From sequence record OQ174501.1: DNA of 64,000 nt; one strand, written 5' to 3'. A model generated the notes under the pieces. It was not told where the DNA came from and ran no database searches. It saw only the letters and a program-made list of their open reading frames with translations. This document shows, piece by piece, positions 1-53,087 of this stretch. How positions within the stretch are numbered: the first letter of the stretch is position 1; every line of letters begins with the position of its first letter. This DNA comes from Escherichia phage REP2. Both the position numbers and the translations under genes were made by a program.

Positions 1-41
1 TTCTCGAGAACTAATTCATGAGTTTCAGGGATCAGAAGCAT
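1..41 (-). CDS. 68: prohead core protein gp68, N-terminal fragment (gene runs off the window edge)
   Basis: ATG overlapping the gp67 stop (TAATG); lies downstream of gene 67 as in T4; only about 13 codons visible. Confidence 0.3.
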   Translation of the reverse strand, partial: MLLIPETHELVLE

Positions 42-288
42 TATTCATCATCCTCGTCTTCGTCATCTTCATCAGAGTCTTTGTCTTTTTTGTCGTCTTT
101 ATCATCACTATCTTCGTCATCATCTTCATCCTCGTCTTCAGGTTCTTCACCTTCGATTAAGAAATTACGAGCGATAGCGATTTTTTCTTCTTTAATTAAA
201 TCAATCGTTCTTGCAGCCATGGCTTCAGCAAATAATTTACGAGCGGCTACGAGGTCGTTTGATTTAATAGCTTCAATTAAACCTTCCA

Positions 289-289
<1 letters not shown>
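41..289 (-). CDS. 67: prohead core protein gp67
   Basis: 82 aa with poly-acidic D/E tail, immediately downstream of gene 20 as in T4. Confidence 0.8.
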
Positions 290-1914
<1,625 letters not shown>

Positions 1915-1923
1915 TTAAGCAGG

Positions 1924-1941
1924 ATGGGGATTTCTCCCCAT
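1924..1941 (-). other. intergenic stem-loop between genes 19 and 20
   Basis: 7-bp perfect stem ATGGGGA/TCCCCAT with 4-nt loop; no clear U-tract on the transcribed strand. Confidence 0.4.
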
Positions 1942-1946
1942 TCATT

Positions 1947-2438
1947 TTATTCCCAATAATCGAGAGCAAGAGTTACTTCAAATGTTTGGATTTCATTGTT
2001 TGAATCCCAATCTAACTGAAGTTCACCCACGTTAGTAGGCCACAGACCTTTAATTTCAATTTCTTTTGTTACTGTTTTAGCGTCACGAGCATATTGACGA
2101 ACGATAGCGCTCTTTTTATACTCTGCTGGTTTTCCACCAGTAATTTCGTTCCCTTGCCCAGCAGCAATGCTTTGCCAATCAACAAACTTCTGACGAGCAT
2201 CATGTGCCTCATCGTTCATTACTGTAACAGTCCAGTCATCGAATGTACGATCGCCTGCTACGTTAATTTTACGGTTCATAAAACCGACTGGAATTTTTTC
2301 TACAATACCAGCTGGTAAAGCAGTGGCTTTACATTGAAACGTAAAATTTTGTCCAAGATAAGAAATTTCTACTTGGAATAAGTTAGGTCGAGCAAAATCA
2401 CCAGATTCAAACGCTCGTGTTACATCATCTACAAACAT
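1947..2438 (-). CDS. 19: tail tube protein gp19
   Basis: 163 aa, size and sequence as T4 gp19. Confidence 0.95.
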   Translation of the reverse strand: MFVDDVTRAFESGDFARPNLFQVEISYLGQNFTFQCKATALPAGIVEKIPVGFMNRKINVAGDRTFDDWTVTVMNDEAHDARQKFVDWQSIAAGQGNEITGGKPAEYKKSAIVRQYARDAKTVTKEIEIKGLWPTNVGELQLDWDSNNEIQTFEVTLALDYWE

Positions 2439-2452
2439 ATTAGCCTCTGTAG

Positions 2453-2460
2453 TATTTATA
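2453..2460 (-). promoter_or_regulatory. T4 late promoter TATAAATA (gene 19, proximal)
   Basis: TATTTATA on plus strand about 15 nt upstream of gp19 ATG. Confidence 0.45.
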
Positions 2461-2511
2461 TCCCTATGTTTAACCTAGGGCATATAGAATTAAAGAATTA
2501 AGGATATAGTG

Positions 2512-2519
2512 TATTTATA
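2512..2519 (-). promoter_or_regulatory. T4 late promoter TATAAATA (gene 19, distal)
   Basis: TATTTATA on plus strand, immediately downstream of the gene 18 stem-loop. Confidence 0.5.
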
Positions 2520-2520
2520 T

Positions 2521-2540
2521 GGCCTGCCGAAACAGGCCTT
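2521..2540 (-). other. intergenic stem-loop after gene 18
   Basis: GGCCTG-ccgaaa-CAGGCC perfect 6-bp stem. Confidence 0.4.
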
Positions 2541-2554
2541 TAGAATGCACCGTA

Positions 2555-4534
2555 TTAACCTGCAAGACCAGTTAACTCATCGAAATCTGCACCAGTAGCA
2601 GTTGCTACGAAGTTCAAGGTAATGTAGTTAATGCTTCTAGCCGGTTGAATGTAGAATGTTGCAACAAACTCATTTCTATCAATTACTGACGGAGTGTTAT
2701 TTGTTGTATCGCAAACTACACGATATTCATAAATTCCACCGAGAGCTTTAATTCCCTGTAAGTATTGGGCAGTTTCTGTGCGGAATGATGAACGAGTAAA
2801 CGCGTTGTTTAATTCGAACAAACGATATTTTGAACTACGTCCGATATTCGTTTTCAACATATTAAACAGACGACGAACGTTAATACGATCAAATGGAGAA
2901 GGAACAGAAGTAGCTGTTTTATCACCATACAATACGTAACCATCACCACCTGTACCAGTTACTGGGTTGATAGCTTCTTGATATAAACGGTCGCGCTGAG
3001 CTTGGCGAGTTTCAATAGCAAGTTTAATAACGTTAAGAATCTGACCACGATTATAACCAGCTGGAGACATCCAAGTCTGAGAAACGTTATCAGTTCTCGC
3101 GCATAAACCAGCAATGTCAGCTGCTAATGGAACCCAACGATTTACATCATTATATTTGTCATACTGATACTTGTAGTTACCATCAATTGCTGCATAGGTT
3201 GAACTGATATTAAAGTTATTATCAGTGTATGAACCTGCCGCAGTTCTCCAGTTAACTAAATTATCTACTGCACGAGTTACAGGAATTCCAACAACAGTTT
3301 CACGCGGCGGTGAGCACAATACTAAGCAATCTTGGCGAGCATCTCCAATTGAAACGACGTGTTTTTGGACAGTAGATGCTGTTTCTAAAGATTCACCGGC
3401 ACAAGAACCCGCAATAAACAACTGAACGTCAACAGATTCGCGGTCAGCAAAGAAGTCCCAAGCTTCCATCAAATCTCCTGCTGTTACTTCAGCATTTGAT
3501 GATAATCCACCAGACAGAGTTAAAATTCCAGAGAAGCCTTCTGGCCAGTTTTGCGCAGTTGCGAAAATATATTCTGAACCACCTTTTGCGAAAAAGTCAT
3601 CAATATAGATGTTACTATCGTAAATATCTTTTTCACCTCGCTTTGTCGAAAGAACAACGCTTTGAACAATAGCATCATTGCGACGAACTATAATAGCGTA
3701 TTGTGAATCAGTTTGTGGTCCATATCCAAACACTGCTTTGGCAGTAGATGCACGAGTACCACCACCTGGATAAATTGGGAGTAATGCAGAAGCTCCTTTT
3801 GCATAGTCAGCTTTAGATACGATTTCAATTTCAATTTTATCGCCCAACTCGCCTGGATAAAGCGCTACTACTCCTGGAATTCCGTATTTTTCGAGATTTG
3901 CTTGAAAGTCAACCGCTGTCATAGCAGCTTCAGCATTTTCAATTTCAGCTAATAAAATACCAGAATCAGTAATAATTTTTCCAAGAGTTATTACTGCAGC
4001 TAAACCAGAGGAAGACGAAGAAATTTCGGCAGTCCAGTTAGAACCTAGTGCTGGATACTCACCGACTTCTTTCGCTTTAGCGATAATTTTTGCAGTAGGA
4101 ATATTAATTTTCTTAATTTTTCCATCAGCATCTACTTCGGTAACTTTACCTTCTGTTTCAACATCTTCTGAAACATACTTAACCGTGATTTTATCTCCAA
4201 CCGCGTAGTTACTACCTGGGGTAGAAATAGTGTATTCAATATTACCGGTAATCGGAGATGAGTTTTTAGCGGTATCTCTATCGACAGCACGAACTACTCG
4301 TAAGTCATTTCCGTACTGCAAGAAATTCATCGCAGACATAAAATAGTCAGCAGTTTCAGCCGTAGGTTGACCAAAAGTATTAACTAAATCTACTTCATTT
4401 GTAACCTGTTTAATTTGAAAAGCAGGACCCCACTGGAATTTACCGGCCAAAGCTGCTGTACCAGTAGAGTTATTAACTACGGTGCTTTGAACCGTAGTTT
4501 CTTTGAGCTCAATGCCCGGAGATAATAAAGTCAT
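2555..4534 (-). CDS. 18: tail sheath protein gp18
   Basis: 659 aa, identical length to T4 gp18, synteny. Confidence 0.95.
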   Translation of the reverse strand: MTLLSPGIELKETTVQSTVVNNSTGTAALAGKFQWGPAFQIKQVTNEVDLVNTFGQPTAETADYFMSAMNFLQYGNDLRVVRAVDRDTAKNSSPITGNIEYTISTPGSNYAVGDKITVKYVSEDVETEGKVTEVDADGKIKKINIPTAKIIAKAKEVGEYPALGSNWTAEISSSSSGLAAVITLGKIITDSGILLAEIENAEAAMTAVDFQANLEKYGIPGVVALYPGELGDKIEIEIVSKADYAKGASALLPIYPGGGTRASTAKAVFGYGPQTDSQYAIIVRRNDAIVQSVVLSTKRGEKDIYDSNIYIDDFFAKGGSEYIFATAQNWPEGFSGILTLSGGLSSNAEVTAGDLMEAWDFFADRESVDVQLFIAGSCAGESLETASTVQKHVVSIGDARQDCLVLCSPPRETVVGIPVTRAVDNLVNWRTAAGSYTDNNFNISSTYAAIDGNYKYQYDKYNDVNRWVPLAADIAGLCARTDNVSQTWMSPAGYNRGQILNVIKLAIETRQAQRDRLYQEAINPVTGTGGDGYVLYGDKTATSVPSPFDRINVRRLFNMLKTNIGRSSKYRLFELNNAFTRSSFRTETAQYLQGIKALGGIYEYRVVCDTTNNTPSVIDRNEFVATFYIQPARSINYITLNFVATATGADFDELTGLAG

Positions 4535-4562
4535 TTTTAATCCTCTTTAATATGCTTTAATA

Positions 4563-7703
<3,141 letters not shown>

Positions 7704-7744
7704 GATTTCTCCTAATCTGGGCTTTAATTAGTTTATAATATTTA

Positions 7745-9446
<1,702 letters not shown>

Positions 9447-9458
9447 TTAAAATCCTTT

Positions 9459-9474
9459 GGGGCCTTGCGGCCCC
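9459..9474 (-). other. intergenic stem-loop between wac and gene 13
   Basis: GGGGCC-ttgc-GGCCCC perfect 6-bp stem. Confidence 0.4.
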
Positions 9475-9478
9475 CATG

Positions 9479-10936
9479 TTATGCTGGTGATAAAAAGGTA
9501 GAAAGTAGTACCCATTCGCCGTCTTTACGAACGTAAGCTTGGCCATCTTTTGGAGCTTCAGGAATATAACCTGCTTCTTGTAGAGCTTGAACGCTGCTCT
9601 GTAAAGAGGATATATTGTCTTTAGCTGTATTTACTTCATGTGTGACTGCCGCAATGTTGGTTTCATTCGTTTTTACAGAATTAGTTAATCCTCGTTCTTC
9701 AACAGTTGATCCGTCAGGATTATTTCCATTTATAAGTGAAGTAAGTTCAATAACTTGACCTTTAATTCCTGTTCTATTATTTCCTATTTCAACTTGTATA
9801 TTTTGAACATTATTGTTTAAAACTGAAACTTCTCCTTCAAGCACTGAAACTTTATTTAATAGAGATCCAGAAGGAGACGGTTGTCCTCCGCTGGAGTCAG
9901 TTCCAACAATTTGATTTAACCACGAAACATTCGCTCTTAAACCAGACGAAGTGTTTTCACCAACAATTCCGTTTAAAGACTCAATAGAAGTTGTGTGATT
10001 TTTAATTTTTCCTTTAATGCTAGAAGGAATATCATCTGAACCTATAGAAGTTTCAATAGCCGTTAAGCGTTGTTTAACACCTTCACTCTGATTTAATTCA
10101 TTATTAATAGCTTCAATGCTACTTTTGTTATTATTAATTTCTGTTATTATAGAAACATTTTCTGGGTATCCAATAGAAGATTTAATTTCTGCTATATCAG
10201 AATTTATTAAAGTTTGTTTATCATCTATAGTGTTTAATCTATTATAAATATTTGGTCCAAAATCTACCGGTTTATTACCAAGTTCATCACGTAATTTACC
10301 AACTTCAACAGTTAATGATCCTACGTCAGATTCAGTAAATTTATTTTCTAATTCGCTTAAACGAATGCCCTGTGAAGATAATAATGTACTATTTGTTATT
10401 ATTCTGTGTTTCATTCCTGTGCTAGCATTACCAACAACAGGAAGACCGTTAATGTCTTGGCCAGAATATTGTCCTAATTCCTGTTTAATCCACAATAAAT
10501 CATTTCTAATTGTTCTATAAACAGAGTTTTCTTCATCATTAAATGGACCTATATCAGCAATAATTTTGTCAACTGTATTATTGGTTCCAGTTAATATATC
10601 AGTGTGTTCACTGGTAAGTGTCTTTAAATTCGATATGTCATTTTTATTAACACTGATCTGCGATAGTGCTTCTATATCTCCTGATACATCTAAAACTCCT
10701 TGAATTGTTTTAATATCTTTCTGTGATGTTTCAATGGCAGTTTTAAGAATTCCCACATTTTCATCAAGAACTTCGACGTTTTTAAACACGGAAACAATTG
10801 GTCTATTCATTGATCCATCATTTCCATACTTAGTACTAGCTCCTAATATTTCTTCACCATTTTTAATCCATGAAATACGTTCCTGACCTTCGTCAGGAAC
10901 GCTATCAACAAAAGGTAACTCTTTTAATTCAATCAT
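9479..10936 (-). CDS. wac: fibritin (whisker) Wac
   Basis: 485 aa coiled-coil protein ending in the foldon [27 protein letters not shown]. Confidence 0.95.
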
Positions 10937-10945
10937 TTGTAATCC

Positions 10946-12496
10946 TTAGTAATGAACTTTAATAATATAGTTTAATGATATATTCCATGGTCTAGTTTCA
11001 TAACCAATTAATCCTTCACGATTAAGTGTACCATGAGCATCTCTCGGTCCACCTAATTCAAATCCATCATTAGTGAAGTATGAAGCATTATCCCAGTCGG
11101 AATATTTTCTAGTTCCAAGATATCCTTGATAAACTGACGCGCCAAATGGGCCTTCACTTCTGTTATATTCACCCCAACCACCAGCATGTTTATGGTATGA
11201 CATTTGTTGTGCCTGAACACCACCAACATGCATTCCGTCACATCCTACGCCCAGTCTATCCTTTCCATAGCCATCTTGTCCACGTTGATTTAAAATATGA
11301 CCGCCTGTGCCGGCTCCTCTGACGAAAAGACCTCGCATATCAGGAATCCCTGGATTATTCCAATCCCCACCAAATCTTGTTCCAACTACGTTTCTATAAT
11401 CAGGAAATTGGTCACCTGACACGGTTCCACCATGACACATAATCCAACCTGGAGGTGCTGAATCACCTGCAAACATCATAATAGTCCCAACTGGAATTCT
11501 TTCGGACGCATATCTTTCAGTGGCAACAGGTTGATCGCCATTTTTCCACATTCCGCCGCGCGACCAAATTCCGTTTGCTGTAAGATGGTCTAAATTTAAA
11601 GAACCATTAATAGTTTGTCCACCACGAGTATTAATTACATCTGCGTTCCATGCTAATGCTCCAGAACTATCACCTTCAGGGGCAATACCGGCTTGCGTCG
11701 TTAATTTAACTACTCCGCGCATAGAACCAGTAGCTCCTCGACCATTTAGTGTTTCACCTGTTACTGCAACATCTCCCAAATTACTGTTAATTTCCGATTG
11801 TGTTCCTAGGCGTATAACACCCTTATATTCTTGTGTTGCAACAGAATTCATAAAGGTATACGGGGAAATTGCATATCCTTCGCGGAGAGTTCCTTGACGA
11901 GTTTGCGCAACAGTAGATAATTGAACTACTCCTCTCACCGATTCTGTTGCAGTGTCTTCTGAAGGAGCTATTTGTGAAATTAATTTTATTGCAAGTTTTT
12001 GGGTTTTTAATGGAGTCATTGCCGTAGTATCATCTACGCCGGCCAAAGCTGCAGGTGTAGATGATATTTTAATAACCCCGTTTGATGACTCAGACGAATA
12101 TCTATTTTGGAACACATCGTCAGTATGGTATTTCAGTTTTTGTGGCGTTATTGATGAATTATTATCTGATCCTTCTAATGTTTCTTCATTTGTTGAATAG
12201 CGCGTTAAACCATACTTAGTTTCAGTAGCATTTGGATACAATAATCTTGTTGCTAATGTAGCTGGTGTAACGATTTTAGAATTATTAGTTCCATCTAAAA
12301 CCTCTTGCTCTGACGCAATCATTGCTATTCCTTTAACTTCCATAGTTGCATCAGGAATACCATTTACGCCGATATTACTTATTTTTGATAATGCAGACTG
12401 TACTGTCGTAACAGTGCCAGGAAAATTCGATCCAGTAGGATCGAATTTAACATATTTTGATTCATTTGATACGTGCTGATATGTATTGTTACTCAT
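10946..12496 (-). CDS. 12: short tail fibre gp12
   Basis: 516 aa (T4 is 527 from memory), Gly-rich C-terminal domain with HxH, synteny. Confidence 0.9.
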
Positions 12497-13152
12497 GCTA
12501 CTCTCTCAAAATAATAAAATACTGTAGGTTGTGTGTGACTATCTAGCGTAACAGTTTGCGCACCTAATAATTGCCAAGTTCCATACCCAGGTTTAGAAGG
12601 AGAAATTATTTCCTGTTTGAAAGTAATTCCTTTATCAGAGTATTGTTCTAAGATATGTTCTTGGTTATCTAAATACTTAACTTGTATTTTATTTCCTATG
12701 GTAGGATGGTCTTCAAATGAATCAATTGCAATAAATTTTACAACCATTTCCTGTAGAGCTATTCTAACGGCACTAGTAAATTCAATTGAAGTCATTCCAT
12801 TAGTAGCTTTAACTGGAATACCAAACATGTTAACAATAACTGGGTCACCTGATTTGACTGAAGTATCAGTAACAGTTCCTTCAAATGACCAATAGTCGGT
12901 TTGTTGCACGCCAGTAGGAGATACGCCGCTTATATTAACTAATACAGCTCCAACCGGTTGCTCTGCCATATTTCTAACGTCATTGATAGCAGATTCTACA
13001 TTTGAATCATAAAAACCTTTTGATATTTGTGAAATTGTTACAGCGCCTACTGGCTGATTATTCATAATCGAAATATCATTTTTCTTAGTTCTAAAACCAA
13101 GAAAATCCGCTAAGCGGGAAATAACTCCCGCTTTATTATTAAGTAAACTCAT
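12493..13152 (-). CDS. 11: baseplate wedge protein gp11
   Basis: 219 aa from [14 protein letters not shown]; start overlaps gp10 stop (TAATG). Confidence 0.9.
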
Positions 13153-14957
13153 TATGCAATCCTTATCCAACGGTATACAGTAATAGACGGTTGAATATTA
13201 CTAATATTAGTAGGAGGAGTATGTGAAGAGTTTGTTGTTGCATAGTCTTCACGATATTTTGTATATATAGGACCAGTTTCATCTGGGTCATATTGACAAC
13301 CTCCAATAATAACTGATCCATTTTCATCTTCAATTAAAACTCTTTCGTCAGTTTTAGTCGCAGGAAGATTTGCATTTTCAAGCGTTACTGACGTTGTTCC
13401 AACTGTTCCACCGGCAGTGTGTGAAGGATTTCCGCTAGAATCTAAATCATTATTGTTTAATGCAAAGTTTGGATCTGTAACATCATCATTCCATCCTACT
13501 AAAACTTGTCCTTTACCAAATAATTTCCACGAACCAAACCCCATATAAGTCACCGGATTATTTGGGTTTATAGCATTTTCATAAATTGAACCTACAGGAT
13601 AAATGCTATCGAAAATAGATGATATTGAATTATACGTTCTAGTATAAGAATCAACTTTTTCAACATTTGGCCAGCCAATTTTATCAAAATCTGTTAAGGC
13701 TACATCGCCAGTAACTTCAGTAGACGATCCTTTGCTAACATAACGGTCATCAGTCAATTCAATGATGTCATCTTTTTCTAAAAGAGTTCCTAAATCATTA
13801 TTGAACCACGTTATAACGATTATATCGCCTGATTCAAATTTTCTATCAAATAAAAGACTGGTAGGTTTTCCATCTTCATATTCTATAGAATAATCTGTGT
13901 TTGATTCTTTCCATTCGCCACCAAGAGATATACATCCTTCTTGCGTATCTGAATTAGCGCCTTCGCACAAAAACAGAGGATACCCAGCTGTTCCAGCCTG
14001 TTGCTGTAAAATTCCATTAAAACGAACCTCAAGAGAATTAGGATTAATGGGTTCGCCAGGAATTAATCCAAAAGCTGAAAATGGAATTGATTTCATCGCC
14101 GATAAATCAGTAACATAAATGCTTCCTTCTAAAGAAGTCTTTGATGTTAGTTTTGAATCTAGCACTTTTATTTGGCGTCTTGTATATGAACTTCTCCATT
14201 GTGATACACCATCCATAAACGTTTCAATTTGAACAGTGTCGCCAATATTACAAGGCTGTCTTAACCTAATATTAAATCCATCAAGAGGAATTAATTCTCC
14301 TTCATTTTCCCCAGGAGAGCCAAAGTCACTGTTTTCACTAAATACATCGCCGTAATATAATTCGTTACCGCGGTGTTTTACTCTGATGTTATTGACATTA
14401 TAACTAGTTCCATGGAAAACATCTAAAAAGTCAGTTTGTCCTTGAACTTCTACTAAAAATTCTTTGCGAGCTACATTACTAATATCTGAACTAATAATTT
14501 TATCAATTTGTTTGTTTTTGACATACTCCCAACGTCCTGGAGCGCAATAAACGAGCTCTAAATCACTAAATTGAATATTAATTTCAACTGACGATGACGA
14601 CCCTTTAATTGTATCCCCAGAAGCAGCTACTAAAGTAACTGGATTAATGTTCCATGTTGCAAATACATCCCTAGCTCTAATTACTTTATTATAATCATTA
14701 ACAGTTCCTTTAGGAAGTTGTAAAGTTACTCTTCCAGAAGAGGTATTAATAGCGTATGATTTTCCCCACTTAGCTTTTAATGTTTGACCGGATGAAGCAT
14801 TATAAGTTTTCCAGGCACCGGCTGAATATGGAACATCTCCATCGCCAAGTTCATAATAAAGTTCATCAAAGTTTTCATTTATTTTTATACCACCTTTACG
14901 CAGGTAGTCACCGGTACCATCATCAACAACATTACCGATATTAATATTTTGTTTCAT
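13152..14957 (-). CDS. 10: baseplate wedge protein gp10
   Basis: 601 aa, synteny. Confidence 0.9.
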
Positions 14958-15823
14958 TATTGAGCCACCCCGATTTTCTGCGTAGCGATAACTTTAACTG
15001 CTGCTCTCATACCGACAGTTGAAGAACTTATAGTCGCTGTTACATAATTTGTTTTAATACTAAATGCAATATTAGCGATTTCGTCTTCTTCAGTTTCATT
15101 CCCAACTCGCATGACAGCATATTCAGAAGAAATGACCGCTGAATTAACAGTATCTACAAGAATATTTATTTCTGCCGTTTTAATTTTTCTTCCATCTACT
15201 GATTGGCATGTAACTAACAATTTAGCCATGTTATATTCAGTACGATGAAACAATGGAATGTCAACTGACCCAGATGTAGAAATATTCCATGTACCTTCGG
15301 CCGGTGATTCCTTTTGGCCAAACATACTTTCAATAGAATAATTCCAAACTGACGTAGAATTATCAGATGAAATACAACGTAAAGTAACTTTACTATATGG
15401 GCTAGTTACTACCAAATTACCCGAAACACCTTTAATTGAATCAATAGCCTGAATCGTTAAAGGATTAGTAACTGATATTGATCCATTAGAGTTAATGAAT
15501 TCAACACAATCGCCAAGTTCTCCTCTTTCAATAATAACTTTAACACCTACAGTAGAGGTATCAATATCATGTCTAGTGCCAACTTTCACTGGAGTTGCGT
15601 ACTCCGCGATAGAGTGCTTTTGATAATATCCAGTAGCATGGATAATTTGACCATCTGCTCCAGTGCCATTTGCTACTGCCATTTTACGCTGATCGCCAAA
15701 CGCATTATAAATTGCGTTAAAATCACTATTAATTTTATTACCACCGTCGAATAAGATATCACCAGTAGAAGCGTTACCAATTTCGCCGGTATCAATCAAT
15801 TTCTTTGGTTCTTGAATGAACAT
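14957..15823 (-). CDS. 9: baseplate wedge / long-tail-fibre socket gp9
   Basis: 288 aa, synteny. Confidence 0.9.
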   Translation of the reverse strand: MFIQEPKKLIDTGEIGNASTGDILFDGGNKINSDFNAIYNAFGDQRKMAVANGTGADGQIIHATGYYQKHSIAEYATPVKVGTRHDIDTSTVGVKVIIERGELGDCVEFINSNGSISVTNPLTIQAIDSIKGVSGNLVVTSPYSKVTLRCISSDNSTSVWNYSIESMFGQKESPAEGTWNISTSGSVDIPLFHRTEYNMAKLLVTCQSVDGRKIKTAEINILVDTVNSAVISSEYAVMRVGNETEEDEIANIAFSIKTNYVTATISSSTVGMRAAVKVIATQKIGVAQ

Positions 15824-15847
15824 AGCGGTTTCCTTATGAGTTTATAG

Positions 15848-15855
15848 TATTTATA
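15848..15855 (-). promoter_or_regulatory. T4 late promoter TATAAATA (gene 9)
   Basis: TATTTATA on plus strand about 25 nt upstream of gp9 ATG. Confidence 0.6.
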
Positions 15856-15884
15856 AAGAAAAAGGGAGCCCATGGGCTCCCTTA
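15856..15884 (-). terminator. rho-independent terminator after gene 8
   Basis: AGGGAGCC-catg-GGCTCCCT stem followed by U-run on the minus strand. Confidence 0.55.
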
Positions 15885-15886
15885 AT

Positions 15887-16891
15887 TTAAAATGTAAACA
15901 GAATATTGATTTCTTCTGTTTGATCCATTGCCATGATAATAGGTGGCCTATTTTCCATATAAATCATTTCGCCCGAATGCCTCATTAAATCTTCCGGATC
16001 ATAATAATCCTTTTCAGCTTTAACGTTTGGGTCATTTGGATGAGCTTTAGCTTCAAGAGGATTCGTGATTATTGATATTTGTCTAAATCCTTTATTTCCC
16101 GGCAATGCAGCTTCTGGAAAATAAACTGAATCTAAATATGCTTTAAAACGGATAGTATTTGCCTTAACACGGTAAATTAATCCAAAATCATCTTGTTGCC
16201 AAGTGAGATTATCTTCATACCCCCATCTAGTTGGGTCTTCTTTTAATTCCTCAGGCCAAGGAACTACGATATATTCATTTGTGCATCTATTTATAGATAC
16301 ATCAGGCGGAATCTCAAAAAGATATTCCCAAACATATCCGTCTCCAGGTTCGATTGTTCCTTCCGCGTCTCCTCGACCTTCAGGAGGAGTCATTGACCTA
16401 ACAGAAGGTGTCCATTTTCCGCCTAATTTAAGGCATTCATCCTTATCAGTTAAAGATGCGATTGAACACATTCCAGTATCAGGAACATCTAAACAACGAT
16501 ATACTAGCCATCCTGCGCCTGATTCAGTAGCATTGTAAGGAGCTGAGTTACATACTACAATATCGTTAATTCTAAATGTGTATGGATCCGGATATCTAGT
16601 ATCTCCCCAATCTCTACGAGGAATAACCGCATCAAGCATTGATGGAAGAACCTTTACTGTTCCCATCATATGCGTCCACATGTCAGTTACGCCTAATACA
16701 GAATCGGTTGGATAAGGTGGGGCAAAGCCCACCTCATTTTCATTTGATGACCACGGTTCTGATCTTCCAAATGTGATAAAGATAGTGTTTTTATCCGGAC
16801 CACTTCCAATTGAATTATAAAAATTCAACATTTTTTCTGTTCTAAATTTTGAAGTAACTATCGCACGATAGATAACACTTGAATCATTCAT
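15887..16891 (-). CDS. 8: baseplate wedge protein gp8
   Basis: 334 aa, synteny. Confidence 0.9.
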   Translation of the reverse strand: MNDSSVIYRAIVTSKFRTEKMLNFYNSIGSGPDKNTIFITFGRSEPWSSNENEVGFAPPYPTDSVLGVTDMWTHMMGTVKVLPSMLDAVIPRRDWGDTRYPDPYTFRINDIVVCNSAPYNATESGAGWLVYRCLDVPDTGMCSIASLTDKDECLKLGGKWTPSVRSMTPPEGRGDAEGTIEPGDGYVWEYLFEIPPDVSINRCTNEYIVVPWPEELKEDPTRWGYEDNLTWQQDDFGLIYRVKANTIRFKAYLDSVYFPEAALPGNKGFRQISIITNPLEAKAHPNDPNVKAEKDYYDPEDLMRHSGEMIYMENRPPIIMAMDQTEEINILFTF

Positions 16892-19800
16892 CTATTTTAA
16901 CCTGTGTTGGATTTTCAGGGTCTCTTGGATTTCCTATATTATCTTTTAGACGTTTATTAACTAAATCCCTAAATTGCGCAAATGTTGTTCCAGAAGCATC
17001 AAATAGGGGACTCATTAACTTGCGTCGTTCAGAAGGCAATTGACCTTGAAATATTGAATTATTATTTTCAGCATTATAGTCATTAGGAAGAGGATATTTT
17101 ACACCAGCCATTGGGCCAGGTTCATAAATTGCTTCTCCTGTTACTGAATCATGTTCAATTTCACCAGTTGGAGTTAATTTAGCTACTCTATCAGCATATT
17201 CAGTAGGCAATCCAGAATCCCATTTATAGTTTTTGTATTTATTAATTATAGTCTCTGTATGTTTAAGAGTTAAACCAACATTAATAAACATCGTTAAAAG
17301 GGTAATTGCTATAAATCCAAATCCTACTGGATGAACAAAACGAATAACGTCAGATTTCCAGCGGGAAGAAGGTAAATTGGATTTAATTTTCATTACATAG
17401 TATGATCTACTTCTATTAATATAGTCTATATTGTTTTGAAGCAAATCCTTTCCTTTAACTCCACGAATAATTTCGCCTTCAAAACTAGGGAGTCTTTCTG
17501 CTTTAACTTCTTGACCAGCAATTAATCTTCCCAAAAGATTATGAATAGTTACGGTCCATTGCAATTTACCATTAGAATAACTTCTTTCTATATAAGTAAC
17601 ATTACATCTTCCTGTGGCTGTATAAATCGTTTGTCCTACTAAATCTTCAGTCAAAGAATCAGATTGAACGATTATGTCATATTCAGTACCAGCCCCAGAT
17701 TCAATTTCAATTTCAACTTCTTCATTATAAAGAACTTTAAAAAGAAACTTGTATGATGCTTCAATTCCTTTAGTAGAATAAAAATCATAGCTACGTGATT
17801 CAAAAAATCTTGCAACAGCATCTCGCTTATCCGCGTTCAAATAAATGTTTCTTTTATATATCTCTGACCACAAATATTCCCATGCATGCTCTTCTCGTGG
17901 ATACTGATTACGAATTAAATTTCGTAAATTGTTATACTGAGTTCCATATCCATCAGAAAGATACTGAATATATGCTTCGCAAAATGCCTCAAAATTCGAA
18001 TCCTGCAACAAATAAGAATCAGGCATCATTGTGCCAATTAATGGTCTTAAATCAGGGTCAGCTAATCCATGCTCTTCTTCTGGTGACCAAGGAGTCTCAT
18101 GCTCTTGGTTTTGTAAAAATGCTTTTAAAAATACTCCAGTCGGCTTCCAAATAATTTCTACTGTATCTCTCACACGATAGTTAAAATCATAATAAGAAAT
18201 TATTTCACCAGAAGATTTATAAAAAAGCATCCCAGACGCATATTTTTTAAATCCCGTGAATTTAACATTTGGCATTACTATCGTACAATCACCATCATCC
18301 CAGTATTCATGAACTAATCTATCTGGTGATGTTTCCGGAATATTTTCTATAACTTTAGTGTATTTTAAATCAGCATAAACTACTACAGCTCTATTAGAGT
18401 TGTTTATCCAGCACCGTGTATTAGACTTTTTAGACCAGTTAAAGAATGGTTCTGCATAGTATTTCATTGGCTGAGGCGTAAAAGTTTCCCAATCAGACTT
18501 TTCATCTGCTATAAATGCCATCATATGATAATGCTTATCAGCTAACCATTCACGAGGAAATTCATATTTAACGGCACCGATTAACTGATATTTTGCTACA
18601 GTTTCAGGGTCATTAACAACGTTATCATTTAAAAATTTAAAATTACTCGAAGATAGAGAAACTAATTTACCATCAGTTGACATATTCGCATACCCAGGTT
18701 GAATACGTCTTCTTTCTTCTTCAGTGTTGCCAAAAACTCTTTTCCACGTTTTTGTGTCATGATTTAAAACATATATTCCTTTATCAGTAGAATCAATTAT
18801 TTTTGACGTTCTAGGATTAGCATTTAATGTTTCAACTTCACCGATAATAAGAGCAAAAACTTTATCACCAATAGAATCCATTTTATAGCATACTGCTTTA
18901 GGATTTCCAGTTATAGTCATTGTATCAGGTTCAAATAGCCTTTCCGAATATGTTGGAGATAATGGATCAGAATCTATAGGTGCATTGCTCGTTTTTATAT
19001 ATCTAACTTTATCTCTGGCAACAACATAGATATAATCATCCGTACAAGTAATGGCTTCAGCTATACGATATACATTCGCTGGTAAAGTCGCATAAGTACC
19101 AAAGATTTCTACATCAAATCCTAAATGTAACTGGTCGCCAAGTTTAGCAAATGTTATATCCTGCGAACTGAATCTGACATCATCTGCTGACCATCTAACG
19201 TCAGTCGATTTACGGCCATAGAAAATCTTGTCGTATCCTAGAACGTATGTTGTGTTCGCAGATTGGTAATATACTGTCTTAGATAAAGGATATCCTACAC
19301 GGTCATTGAAGAGCTTTACGGCTTTCCAGGTTTGTCCTTTATCATTGGATACTTTAACTACAGGTTGATAGCGCTCAAAAAGATATAGAATTCCTTCTGA
19401 TTCCATCAAATAAACTCGGTTAATATCCTTACATACTTGCTGAATAGAACCTTGTATTTCATGATACTCATTTTCACCAATAATAAAATTACTTATTGAT
19501 GAAACATCAACATACGATGGGCTGAATTGAAATGATTCATTCATCAATGCAGCCATTATAGTGTCATTGTTAAAATTAACATAATCAGAATTATTAAGAG
19601 TAAATTTTTCCTGAATGAATTTATTGGCTAATTGCATTTCAATCATGTTTTGAAATGTATAAGCATTTGTAGCAAAAGTTTCAAACTCTTCGGTATAAAT
19701 CCAATCAGACTGCTCAAAATCTTGTGCAGCTGTAGCTACTCTAATAATGTATGATGTCAATGGGTCAGCATCGTCAAAAAAGAAGCTGTTATTTGCAGTA

Positions 19801-30189: not shown

Positions 30190-30262
30190 TGGGAATTAGC
30201 CAAGTTGGTAAGGCATAGCACTTTGACTGCTAGATGCAAAGGTTCGAGTCCTTTATTCCCAG
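30190..30262 (+). tRNA. tRNA-Gln (UUG)
   Basis: cloverleaf by eye; anticodon loop CUUUGAC; T-arm GGTTCGAGTCC. Confidence 0.8.
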
Positions 30263-30263
30263 C

Positions 30264-30350
30264 GCGAGAATGGTCAAATTGGTAAAGGCACAGCACTTAA
30301 AATGCTGCGGAATGATTTCCTTGTGGGTTCGAGTCCCACTTCTCGCACCA
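30264..30350 (+). tRNA. tRNA-Leu (UAA)
   Basis: 87 nt with long variable arm; anticodon loop CUUAAAA; CCA encoded. Confidence 0.8.
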
Positions 30351-30355
30351 AATTT

Positions 30356-30429
<74 letters not shown>

Positions 30430-30439
30430 ATTTAATTTA

Positions 30440-30513
30440 CTCCGTGTAGCTCAGTTTGGTAGAGCGCCTGATTTGGGATCAGGAGGTCCAAGGTTCAAAT
30501 CCTTGTATGGAGA
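30440..30513 (+). tRNA. tRNA-Pro (UGG)
   Basis: anticodon loop UUUGGGA; T-arm GGTTCAAATCC. Confidence 0.75.
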
Positions 30514-30515
30514 CT

Positions 30516-30605
30516 GGAGGCGTGGCAGAGTGGTTTAATGCACCGGTCTTGAAAACCGGCAGTCGCTCCGGCGACTCATAGGTTCAAATCCTATCGCCTC
30601 CGCCA
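30516..30605 (+). tRNA. tRNA-Ser (UGA)
   Basis: 90 nt with long variable arm; anticodon loop CUUGAAA; CCA encoded. Confidence 0.8.
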
Positions 30606-30610
30606 GTTTT

Positions 30611-30686
30611 GCTGATTTAGCTCAGTAGGTAGAGCACCTCACTTGTAATGAGGATGTCGGCGGTTCGATTCCGTCAATCAGCACCA
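30611..30686 (+). tRNA. tRNA-Thr (UGU)
   Basis: anticodon loop CUUGUAA; CCA encoded. Confidence 0.8.
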
Positions 30687-30687
30687 A

Positions 30688-30762
30688 GGCCCTGTAGCTG
30701 GAAGGTTCAAGCAAGCGACTCATAATCGCCAGATGGTGGTTCAATTCCACCCAGGGCCACCA
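30688..30762 (+). tRNA. tRNA-Ile/Met (CAU)
   Basis: anticodon loop CUCAUAA; by position the homologue of T4 tRNA-Ile. Confidence 0.65.
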
Positions 30763-30768
30763 AATTAA

Positions 30769-30855
30769 GGGGAGTTATCCCGTAGAGGTAGCGGTGTGGA
30801 CTGTAAATTCATTGTCATTGCGACTCGGGTGGTTCGACTCCACCACTCCCCACCA
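30769..30855 (+). tRNA. tRNA-Tyr (GUA)
   Basis: 87 nt class-II fold with long variable arm; anticodon loop CUGUAAA; T-arm GGTTCGACTCC. Confidence 0.6.
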
Positions 30856-30859
30856 ATTT

Positions 30860-30934
30860 GGATGTGTAGCTCAGTGGTAGAGCAGTTGACTGTTAATCAA
30901 TTGGTCCATGGTTCGAATCCATGCATGTCCGCCA
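30860..30934 (+). tRNA. tRNA-Asn (GUU)
   Basis: anticodon loop CUGUUAA; T-arm GGTTCGAATCC; CCA encoded. Confidence 0.65.
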
Positions 30935-31060
30935 AACTTGTGACAGTTGTCACATTAATATCTACTTGACGCGATTATAGGGGTTGAACTGATCACACTT
31001 CTCTTAATTTCGTGTGAAGACATCTTGATTGTTGGAGTAGGTATTGCTGTGAACTAATTA

Positions 31061-31137
31061 CGGGGTGTAACTCAATTGTATAGAGTAGCGGTCCTCTAAA
31101 CCGCAGGTTAAAGGTTAGAATCCTTTCACCCTGACCA
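31061..31137 (+). tRNA. tRNA-Arg (UCU)
   Basis: anticodon loop CCUCUAA; CCA encoded; last tRNA of the cluster. Confidence 0.65.
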
Positions 31138-34943: not shown

Positions 34944-35287
34944 ATAAAGTCAAATATTCTCTTCCTGAGTCATTTTTAATTTTTGCTGTAGCGTTGGCTA
35001 CAGCTCTTGCGGGTAGTCTTTTTGGATTGTTAATTGACTGTCTTATTTTAAACATTGACGGCACAGTAAATATAATAGAAGTTTGGAGTGAACTTCGTTA
35101 TACTATAGCGATTTCATTATTTTCATTCTTTGGTACCATGTTATATTTTCATTATGATAATTTTAAAATAAATTGGCAAAGAAAAAAGGATTACAAAATA
35201 CAATTAAATGAATATAATAACTACATGTCTTATATTGAAAAAGAATCAATGGAAGAGTTTGTGAGTGATTGTAGGAAAATTAAATGA
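34925..35287 (+). CDS. small membrane protein, paralogue family member
   Basis: 120 aa, 2 TM helices, C-terminal FVSDCRKIK. Confidence 0.55.
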   Translation: MQKPKLNKVKYSLPESFLIFAVALATALAGSLFGLLIDCLILNIDGTVNIIEVWSELRYTIAISLFSFFGTMLYFHYDNFKINWQRKKDYKIQLNEYNNYMSYIEKESMEEFVSDCRKIK

Positions 35288-35772
35288 TTTTAAAAACTCG
35301 CTGGTATGATTTAGATGATGGGGACGATGGCATTTCAGTTGATAGAGTTGACTGGAGTGGCTGTTCCGAAGATATGAAAAAATTGTTAATTAGGGAGTTT
35401 AGAATGGGATATCAAGCAGCTAAGCCATCTACTGTAACAGATGATAAATTCGTGTGTATTCAAAATGGTCGTGCTAAGTTAACGAACGCTGATTGGTTCA
35501 CAGATAAGAAGGTTATTCTGTGGTATATTATTAGTTTTCCTGTGACATCATTTGTATTTTGCTTCTTTGGAGAAAGTCCAGTAGGCAGAACGGAAGATTG
35601 GATTCTTTTAATTATACTTGTTAATATTTTTACAGCAGCAGTACTATCAGGAATATGGTGCGTGTTCATTGAAATGCCATGGCGGTTACGTAGGCAGCAA
35701 AAGATTTTTGATGAAAAGAAATATACTCAAAATTTAAATAATTTTATCACTGAATGCAGGAAATTAAAATGA
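35284..35772 (+). CDS. small membrane protein, paralogue family member
   Basis: 162 aa, 2 TM helices, C-terminal FITECRKLK. Confidence 0.55.
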   Translation: MILKTRWYDLDDGDDGISVDRVDWSGCSEDMKKLLIREFRMGYQAAKPSTVTDDKFVCIQNGRAKLTNADWFTDKKVILWYIISFPVTSFVFCFFGESPVGRTEDWILLIILVNIFTAAVLSGIWCVFIEMPWRLRRQQKIFDEKKYTQNLNNFITECRKLK

Positions 35773-36208
35773 AAACATTATCAGCTGGTATTATCTTTAT
35801 GACAGAAGATAAAGATTTATTTATGGGACGAGTTACTGGTTCTCGTAAGCCTGGAATGATGGCACATCGCTGGATATTCCAAAGGGGCGTGTAGAAAATT
35901 CTGATTTAAGCGCATTAGATGCAGCACGAAGAGAATGCTCAGAAGAGACTGGTTTTAACAATTATAATCCAGACCTTCTAGAAGACCTAGGTGTATTTAA
36001 ATATTCTAGTAATAAAGACTTACAGTTATTTTATTATACGATTCCAGTAGAGCATGAGATGTTCAGAAATTGCCGTTGTGAGTCTTATTTTGAAAATAAA
36101 GATGGCGTTATGATTCCAGAGATGGATGCTTTTGCTCTTATTCCTCGTACTCAGTGGCAATATGTGATGGGTCCTTCACTTTACCGAATAATGAACAGCC
36201 TCTTTTAA
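35769..36208 (+). pseudogene. nudE: Nudix hydrolase nudE (e.1), frame disrupted
   Basis: ATG frame reads MKTLSAGIIFMTEDKDLFMGRVTGSRKPGMMAHRW then stops at about 35892; the -1 frame continues DIPKGRVENSDLSALDAARRECSEETGF... (Nudix box) to a stop at about 36206; a single missing G in CTGG-GAT would join them. Confidence 0.6.
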
Positions 36209-36739
<531 letters not shown>

Positions 36740-37224: not shown

Positions 37225-37698
37225 ATGAAAACATATCAAGAATTTATCACTGAAGCAGCTATTAATTCTCAAATTATTGCTGAATCTTTTACCGATCTTT
37301 TGAAATTTAAAAAAGGTCAAAAAATCACTGCTGTATTGGATGATGGTACAGAAGTTGAGATGGATGTACAGGGATATAATTATGCAGTAGATGGAAAACT
37401 GTATAATAAATCTCATGCTAAATTTGATTCATTTGACGACTTTGTTAATACAGTTGAAGATGAAAAAACTCGTAGATCCATTGCAACTGGCGACGCTAAG
37501 GTTCTTATGGCACATGGCCATGAACGCATCCGCGCTAAACAGAATAAAATGGGCGAAGATAATTTTGCATTAGTTGGTTATCAATCTGGTAAACAAACTT
37601 ATGGCTATCAACGTACTGCTACCATGTATAATAAAAATGGTAAAATCGCTTTCGTGAATAGTAAAGGTTCTATTCAGTACGTTAAATCGTTCAAATAA
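37225..37698 (+). CDS. internal protein with CTS (ipII/ipIII-like position)
   Basis: 157 aa starting MKTYQEFITE; basic, Lys/Gly-rich body. Confidence 0.65.
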   Translation: MKTYQEFITEAAINSQIIAESFTDLLKFKKGQKITAVLDDGTEVEMDVQGYNYAVDGKLYNKSHAKFDSFDDFVNTVEDEKTRRSIATGDAKVLMAHGHERIRAKQNKMGEDNFALVGYQSGKQTYGYQRTATMYNKNGKIAFVNSKGSIQYVKSFK

Positions 37699-51008: not shown

Positions 51009-52028
51009 ATGAAAACTCGTTCTCAAATTGAAGATATGGTTCGTAATGCCAGCTATACTCGTGATGTTATGACATTTTTGTGCCAAAATAATTTAGACCC
51101 TGATAAAGTTAATCGTGATATTCACTTTAAGTATATGAATAGCAGTGAATGGTTACGTCATTTTAATGAAGCAGGGTATATTACTCAAATGACTGCTCGT
51201 GAGCAGCTCACCGATTTCTGTAAAACTATTGATTATAAAAATCCTCTATTTGTTCAAGGCGTTGGTCAAAGTAAGGTCGATTTATCATCTGGATTTTTCA
51301 ATCCAAATCATTATCGTATTGAATGGAGATTTATTGCTCTATTCCGTAGACAATTAAAGCAAATTTTGTCTACTGCTAGTCGATTAAAAGGTTCTGATAT
51401 TAACTTAAAGAATCTTAAATTTGATGGTTATACTCTTCAGATGGAAGTAAGACCATTAAAAGAAAATAATAGAACTGCACGAATTAGCTTTAAACCTAAT
51501 ACAAAAAATTCTCTTTCAATTTGTGAATGCCTTAAATCGCAGTTGACAGAAGCATTTAAGTATATGGATGTTGTTGCTGCTGTTCAGTCTAAGATTTCAC
51601 AGCATTTCGAACGATTTAAATTAGACACAACAGCGTATGAACTTGATATGATCGTTTCATTTAAATATGAATTTTTGAGAAAAGATGAAGTCCCGCAAGA
51701 GAAAAAGCAGGAAGTGCAAGATAACTTAAATTTATCCAATTACTTATCAAACGATCCTAAATTTTGGATGTATAGTTCAGGTAATAAAGATGCATGGAAA
51801 TTTAATAAAGTGAATTTTCTTCCTATTGAAAATCCGAGTCTTAAACCTGTTGAAAAATGGCATGCAGATGCGATTGAGAAGTCTATCAAGGCAGTAGATG
51901 ATGAACTCGTTAAAGCAACTAATGAAGTGCTAGAAGCTGAAAAGATGTTGGAAAAAGCTCAAGAAAAAGTCAAAAATCTTACGAAGCAACGTTCTAAACT
52001 GAACAATGCACTAAATGCACTGAACTAG
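51009..52028 (+). CDS. paralogue family protein 2 (coiled-coil tail)
   Basis: 339 aa; MKTRSQIED start; RFIALFRRQLKQILSTASRLKG; C-terminal coiled coil. Confidence 0.6.
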   Translation: MKTRSQIEDMVRNASYTRDVMTFLCQNNLDPDKVNRDIHFKYMNSSEWLRHFNEAGYITQMTAREQLTDFCKTIDYKNPLFVQGVGQSKVDLSSGFFNPNHYRIEWRFIALFRRQLKQILSTASRLKGSDINLKNLKFDGYTLQMEVRPLKENNRTARISFKPNTKNSLSICECLKSQLTEAFKYMDVVAAVQSKISQHFERFKLDTTAYELDMIVSFKYEFLRKDEVPQEKKQEVQDNLNLSNYLSNDPKFWMYSSGNKDAWKFNKVNFLPIENPSLKPVEKWHADAIEKSIKAVDDELVKATNEVLEAEKMLEKAQEKVKNLTKQRSKLNNALNALN

Positions 52029-52057
52029 TTTACATTGCCACAAGGATGTGGTATAAT
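52028..52057 (+). promoter_or_regulatory. T4-type early promoter
   Basis: GTTTAC-N18-TGGTATAAT. Confidence 0.75.
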
Positions 52058-52085
52058 GTTCTTACTTTCTACTGAGGAGATTATT

Positions 52086-53087
52086 ATGACTCGTAACGAA
52101 TATATCAAATCATTCAATAGCGTTATTGATGATAAAGCTATACCGATGTTTGGTCAAAATATCGTTCTTTCTATTATCAATCAATGGCTCAATAGTGTTG
52201 ATGCAAGTATTGTTTCTTCTACTAAATTTATTCATGAAATTCGTAAAATTTCTAGCCGTGTAGATAAAGATGTTATCAAGAAAACCTTTAAAGAGTCTCG
52301 TCTTCTTTCATATTTGGTTAATCGGGATATTCTTGGTAATTTTGGGAAAGAAATTAAACGAACCAAAGATGTAGTAGGATATAATTGGTTCGGTGATGTT
52401 AATTCTTATCATCTTAATAATAAAGAAGACCCTGAGAATATTTTTACTCGTCGTTGGATTAGTAATTTCAGACTTTTCAAAGGACAGATTCTAAAATCAG
52501 CTTCTAAATTATGTTATGGCGATTATCGTCAAATTCATCCTTTGGCTTCTGATATGATTATCATAAAAGAATATGAACTTGATAAAAATAAAGTATCTAT
52601 TTTTGTGAATTATGGATTTTTTACACCAAACGCTAACCAAAAGAACATTAATAAATTTTTCTCAATTGCTAGCACTATAACTCGTCAGTTAGAGACTGCA
52701 TTACTTTGTATGGAAACAGTAGAAAATATTCATACATATCCTTTTAAGAATATATGCGGATGGGAAGGATATAAAATTGTAATTAGTCTTCGTGAAGTGA
52801 AATGTGCTTATTCACCTACTGATAAAGAAATTTATCAACAAAAATGTGAGGAAATTGTGAATACTCCTAAAGAAGAAACTACCCTTGAGGAACTAATGGA
52901 TAATCTTGATGATTCGCCTGAACCGGCAGAAATTCGTCCAGAAGTTATTGCACTAGAAAAAGCTTATAAAGAAGTTCTAGAAATTTCTAATAAAGCGCAG
53001 AAAGAATATGAGCAGGCTAAAAGGATTTGGGAAGAATCTGTTAATCGTCTTGATCGTTTGGAACAAGCTTTACAGTTAATTAAGTAA
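52086..53087 (+). CDS. paralogue family protein 3 (coiled-coil tail)
   Basis: 333 aa; MTRNEYIKS start; RWISNFRLFKGQILKSASKL; C-terminal coiled coil. Confidence 0.6.
   Translation: MTRNEYIKSFNSVIDDKAIPMFGQNIVLSIINQWLNSVDASIVSSTKFIHEIRKISSRVDKDVIKKTFKESRLLSYLVNRDILGNFGKEIKRTKDVVGYNWFGDVNSYHLNNKEDPENIFTRRWISNFRLFKGQILKSASKLCYGDYRQIHPLASDMIIIKEYELDKNKVSIFVNYGFFTPNANQKNINKFFSIASTITRQLETALLCMETVENIHTYPFKNICGWEGYKIVISLREVKCAYSPTDKEIYQQKCEEIVNTPKEETTLEELMDNLDDSPEPAEIRPEVIALEKAYKEVLEISNKAQKEYEQAKRIWEESVNRLDRLEQALQLIK

Follow-up and report, generated by a model that had tools for sequence, protein, structure and literature searches.

A single-base frameshift truncates nudE in the T4-like phages REP2 and REP3, probably through a recent deletion

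Introduction

Does the nudE gene of Escherichia phage REP2 still yield a Nudix hydrolase, and, if not, was its reading frame broken by mutation or only in the deposited sequence? This question is raised by a 64,000-nt stretch of the REP2 genome (OQ174501.1; hereafter the window), in which nudE is spread over two reading frames. An initial inspection of this stretch (the original prediction) had offered three explanations, namely a pseudogene, a sequencing error and, as the least likely of them, recoding. In T4, the corresponding protein is NudE.1 (gene e.1 / nudE, NP_049737.1), whose record lists activity on FAD, diadenosine polyphosphates, ADP-ribose and NADH, and whose in vitro substrates comprise FAD, Ap3A, ADP-ribose, NAD and NAD-capped RNA, the last being decapped (10.1101/2024.04.04.588121). 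T4 carrying the catalytically dead E64,65Q variant has a similar or normal burst size and lyses about 15 min late, and earlier work on T4 without NudE.1 is cited in the same study as showing an auxiliary role of this protein (10.1101/2024.04.04.588121). Here, we compared the interrupted gene with its relatives, weighed the possible origins of the interruption and considered what product, if any, the locus can still provide.

Results

The lesion can be read directly from the sequence. At 35872-35873 (plus strand), the window has GG (TGG-ATATT), whereas the aligned relatives, comprising T4, Shigella phage Sf25, ECP2301 and four IMG/VR contigs, have GGG (TGGGATATT). This single-base gap is the sole difference between the window and the intact 441-nt nudE of Sf25 (AUV63534.1), and restoring the G renders the two genes identical at the DNA level, with a product of 146 aa, the same length as annotated in Sf25 and in Escherichia phage REP1 (WBY52616.1). 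Since such a sequence feature is deterministic, chance is not at issue. Translation from the ATG at 35769, which overlaps the stop codon of the preceding gene e.2 as ATGA, gives MKTLSAGIIFMTEDKDLFMGRVTGSRKPGMMAHRW (35 NudE residues) and then IFQRGV, followed by a TAG at 35892-35894, so that the truncated frame (35769..35894, plus strand) amounts to 41 codons and the stop. The remaining 111 codons of nudE are orphaned in the -1 frame (35873..36208, plus strand), which is open from 35849, reads DIPKGRVENSDLSALDAARRECSEETGF... from 35873 and runs through to a TAA at 36206-36208.

Direct reading, translation and alignment thus all uphold the original prediction that nudE is broken by a single-nucleotide frameshift, with one base missing from a G run, and that one added G restores a 146-aa NudE. 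The early stop of the frame opened at 35769 was also correctly foreseen, but not the length of the tail, which counts six sense codons after Trp35 instead of five.

An alignment to T4 nudE had been suggested as a check, and it exposes the change of frame: in tblastn against the window, T4 NudE residues 1-45 are matched in frame 3 (88.9% identity, a value that includes the shifted residues), and residues 41-151 are matched in frame 2 at 35873-36205 (97.3% identity). The identity of the gene, likewise proposed at the outset, proved right as well. The locus is that of T4 e.1, in the order e.2-nudE-e, and the wider order e.3-e.2-nudE-e-denV is conserved with T4, as expected of the T4 nudE orthologue. 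The two proteins are alike in sequence (97% amino-acid identity over T4 residues 41-151) and share the same Nudix box and Glu-Glu pair. Unlike in T4, the frame in the window is broken after codon 35 and can yield no more than a 41-aa stub. The annotated start also lies five codons further downstream than that of T4, because e.2 is longer and overlaps nudE; an in-frame ATG further upstream, at 35754, is the counterpart of the annotated T4 start (MQEIK).

When the missing G is added, and only then, the resulting 146-aa protein matches the Pfam NUDIX family (PF00293) over residues 2-105 with E = 9.1e-14 and 52.1 bits, well above the family cut-off of 21.1 bits. The 41-aa stub has no Pfam match and ends upstream of the Nudix box, and the absence of the domain from it is therefore a plain observation. 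The box itself, GRVENSDLSALDAARRECSEETGF (35885..35956, plus strand; read from the sequence and its translation), lies in the orphaned -1 frame, as the original prediction had suspected from a Nudix-box-like motif; in fact, the whole box and both catalytic glutamates are found beyond the shift. It reads G40-RVENS-D46-LSALDAAR-R55-E56-C-S-E59-E60-T-G-F63 and conforms to the consensus GX5EX7REUXEEXGU, except that the first Glu is replaced by Asp and the spacer is longer by one residue, as is also the case in T4 NudE. The catalytic Glu-Glu pair, E59 and E60, is encoded at 35942-35947 and corresponds to E64 and E65 of T4 NudE.1. With the Nudix domain lying entirely 3' of the shift, the sole nudE product that can be made is predicted to be catalytically dead.

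Since the -1 frame still encodes an intact box and C-terminal part, one may ask whether nudE has become a split gene, the C-terminal part being translated on its own and acting as a stand-alone Nudix fragment. We consider this scarcely credible and rejected it, since the -1 frame contains no ATG, GTG or TTG before 36059, a position already downstream of the box; the claim that this frame lacks a start codon thus holds for all three triplets up to 36059. Moreover, the 49-aa ORF that could be opened at 36059 has no Pfam match, and the NUDIX match of the restored protein begins at residue 2, which implies that the fold requires the N-terminal strands.

Full-length NudE might alternatively be produced by recoding, through -1 ribosomal frameshifting or transcriptional slippage within the 46 nt over which the two frames overlap (35849-35894). 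A rare AGG codon (CAA AGG GGC) does stand shortly before the zero-frame stop, and low-level spontaneous slippage there is conceivable. However, as stated in the original prediction, no slippery heptamer is evident: none of the X XXY YYZ form occurs in the zero frame of the overlap, the codons of which are CCT GGA ATG ATG GCA CAT CGC TGG ATA TTC CAA AGG GGC GTG TAG. The runs in this interval (G2, A3 and G4) are too short for slippage by RNA polymerase, and the roughly 100 nt downstream (35880-35980) fold no better than shuffled sequences (z = -0.99). Nor is the arrangement conserved, for the aligned relatives and all listed near-identical records carry nudE in one frame, and REP3 alone among the relatives compared shares the two-frame configuration. 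Recoding, having neither a slippery site nor a significant downstream structure to act through, was rejected and is very unlikely. Indeed, with no heptamer, a fold of z = -0.99 and no internal start, the order in which the three explanations had initially been ranked remains unchanged.

On either side, the genes surrounding nudE are those of T4, with e.5, e.4, e.3 and e.2 upstream, and e (lysozyme) and denV downstream. The e.2 homologue (35284..35772, plus strand), whose stop codon overlaps the nudE start, encodes a predicted membrane protein of 162 aa, and gene e (36245..36739, plus strand) encodes an intact T4 lysozyme homologue of 164 aa that is 97% identical to T4 e. The leader between nudE and e (36208-36250, plus strand) belongs to gene e itself and contains two TATAAATA late-promoter boxes (36211-36218 and 36224-36231) as well as a hairpin (AATACCT/AGGTATT) over the Shine-Dalgarno sequence of e, with a dG of -16.2 kcal/mol and z = -5.3. 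Such a leader agrees with the early/late control of lysozyme translation known from T4. Because gene e is served by late promoters and a leader of its own, its expression should be independent of nudE translation. Further downstream, denV is only 77% identical to its T4 counterpart and is followed by a different internal-protein gene (37225-37698).

The window is the reverse complement of Escherichia phage REP3 (OQ174502.1; river water, USA), a near-identical Tequatrovirus. Positions 1-17010 are 100% identical between the two, and positions 16934-64000 are identical save for 34 substitutions, all of which fall within 910 bp (51737-52646). Because these 34 SNPs are confined to one patch, the window and REP3 represent distinct assemblies that carry the same deletion; furthermore, the window spans the ends of the REP3 record, which overlap by 77 bp, and hence stems from a different record. 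The patch falls in the nrdC.5 and nrdC.4 homologues, and its best other match is REP1 (98.8%). It looks like the outcome of recombination or gene conversion between co-occurring sister phages, or like a difference in how the assemblies were built. The linear REP3 record begins and ends with the same 77 bp (window 16934-17010), an untrimmed assembly overlap, and, since this repeat falls inside gene 7, that gene is left unannotated in REP3.

The restriction of the broken allele to the REP2/REP3 lineage was observed directly in several searches. The exact 41-aa stub is present only in REP3 (WCA46170.1, annotated as "nudix hydrolase" at the same coordinates as the truncated frame of the window) and REP2 (WBY52808.1), i.e. 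in NCBI records only, with none in read-based assemblies. A 561-nt query across the lesion matched 506 phage records, nearly all of them Tequatrovirus, and an exact 80-mer over the lesion was found in REP3 only, among 388 matching phage records. The junction 21-mer CATCGCTGGATATTCCAAAGG returned no hits in IMG/VR and none in GTDB genomes. Two metagenome matches to it were dismissed as chance, both being located in unrelated, GC-richer contigs without BLAST similarity to the window. In REP1, which has an adjacent accession, the same river-water source and belongs to the same isolation series, nudE is intact (441 nt, encoding the full 146 aa) and has the same local context at the lesion, its nearest differences from the window being at least 16 nt away. 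A literature search on phages REP2 and REP3 found nothing relevant.

Frameshifted nudE alleles are not limited to these two phages. ECP2301 (OR880646.1, 370-811) has an additional G in a GGGG run, by which the gene is divided into WVH02128.1 and WVH02127.1, annotated as "hypothetical protein" and "nudix hydrolase"; this allele is unique in the phage collection. An additional G in the GGGG run is also present in a Logan contig (ERR6109018), and one G is missing from it in NFZC01010412.1. All three resemble the allele described here in being single-G indels within the same short stretch of nudE that leave stubs of 41-45 aa. They differ from it in their site, which is the GGGG run 10-14 nt downstream, and in their sign, two being +G and one -G, and their sequences indicate independent events or errors, distinct from the REP2/REP3 allele. 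It is tempting to regard the GGG and GGGG runs, 10 nt apart, as a mutational on/off hotspot through which NudE would be switched off repeatedly, and possibly on, under selection by host NAD/ADP-ribose-linked defences or by lysis timing, but we deem this highly improbable. The frameshift alleles were retrieved through one 90%-identity protein cluster, which selects truncations near residue 40-50, and, because of this bias, the clustering of indels at the G runs is not evidence of a hotspot.

Discussion

Two explanations of the missing G deserve serious consideration. The one that we favour, with a probability of about 0.65, is a genuine and very recent 1-nt loss-of-function deletion in the accessory gene nudE of the REP2/REP3 lineage. 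According to the second explanation, which is possible though clearly the less probable of the two, the true sequence is GGG and nudE is intact, a homopolymer miscall having entered the two sister records, for instance because they share data or were polished against a reference.

Several circumstances speak for an error. The lesion sits in a G run, the missing base is the only difference from an intact allele, and the lesion is seen in only two near-identical records of one submitter series; REP2 and REP3 may share an artefact of consensus calling or polishing, or may descend from one parental stock. No copy of the junction occurs in IMG/VR or GTDB genomes, with the stub being confined to NCBI records, and the single-G indels 10-14 nt downstream in other deposited assemblies (ECP2301, the Logan contig and NFZC01010412) suggest that the stretch may be error-prone. 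In addition, the cytosines in T-even DNA are heavily modified, which causes trouble on some sequencing platforms. Compared with Sf25, the orphaned part of nudE shows no additional substitution, which is compatible with an error as well as with a very recent mutation.

Against this stands, first of all, that an identical 41-aa product was deposited for two separate genomes, REP3 and REP2, which are distinct assemblies. A systematic error driven by sequence context is unlikely, because REP1, from the same series, reads GGG within the same local context, with the nearest differences at least 16 nt off. A run of three bases is short for a homopolymer error, and the 77-bp overlap of the REP3 ends, presumably typical of a SPAdes short-read assembly with k=77, hints at a data type for which a GGG-to-GG error in high-coverage assembly is uncommon. 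Neither is the window indel-prone as a whole: in tblastn with the matching T4 proteins, from gene 49 to gene 13, a lineage-specific change of frame was seen only in nudE among the genes of the 64-kb window. Split frames were otherwise confined to vs.5 and vs.8, the REP3 CDS lengths of which equal those annotated in Sf25. A 152-aa "RNA ligase" of REP3, considered as a second truncated gene, turned out to be full-length gp57B, 100% identical to that of T4.

If the deletion is genuine, the loss of one G from the GGG run is what replication slippage would be expected to cause. Translation that begins at 35769 would then terminate after 41 residues, short of the Nudix box and the catalytic glutamates, and no Nudix hydrolase would be made from nudE in REP2 and REP3. 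The phage would presumably tolerate this loss: a nudE null allele is expected to be viable because T4 with E64,65Q is near-normal and NudE.1 is auxiliary. It could also be that the phage acquired the deletion while being enriched in the laboratory, and not in nature.

In itself, the lesion is ordinary, a frameshift of one base in an accessory gene that is dispensable, and the truncated CDS is already annotated in GenBank. Provided that it is genuine, the river-water isolates REP2 and REP3 are T4-like phages that are naturally NudE-null, which would make nudE dispensable outside the laboratory and offer ready-made controls for studies of NudE.1 in NAD-RNA decapping, in the hydrolysis of FAD, ADP-ribose and Ap3A, and in lysis timing. 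If it is an error, the sole consequence is the correction of two GenBank records. In either case, a 41-aa CDS named "nudix hydrolase" merits a flag as a pseudogene or fragment.

Elsewhere in the window, the T4 mobile endonuclease genes segB, segC and mobD gave no tblastn hit, and the same applies to ipI, ipII, ipIII, e.7, 49.3, tk.1 and 5.3 of T4. A cluster of ten tRNA genes (Gln, Leu, Gly, Pro, Ser, Thr, Met/Ile(CAT), Tyr, Asn and Arg) is located at 30190-31137; the T4 cluster, in contrast, has eight genes and is interrupted by segB, so that the window possesses an extra Tyr and Asn tRNA and is devoid of segB at this site. Finally, nrdD is annotated in REP3 as a continuous CDS of 1818 nt, while that of T4 is joined across the I-TevII intron.
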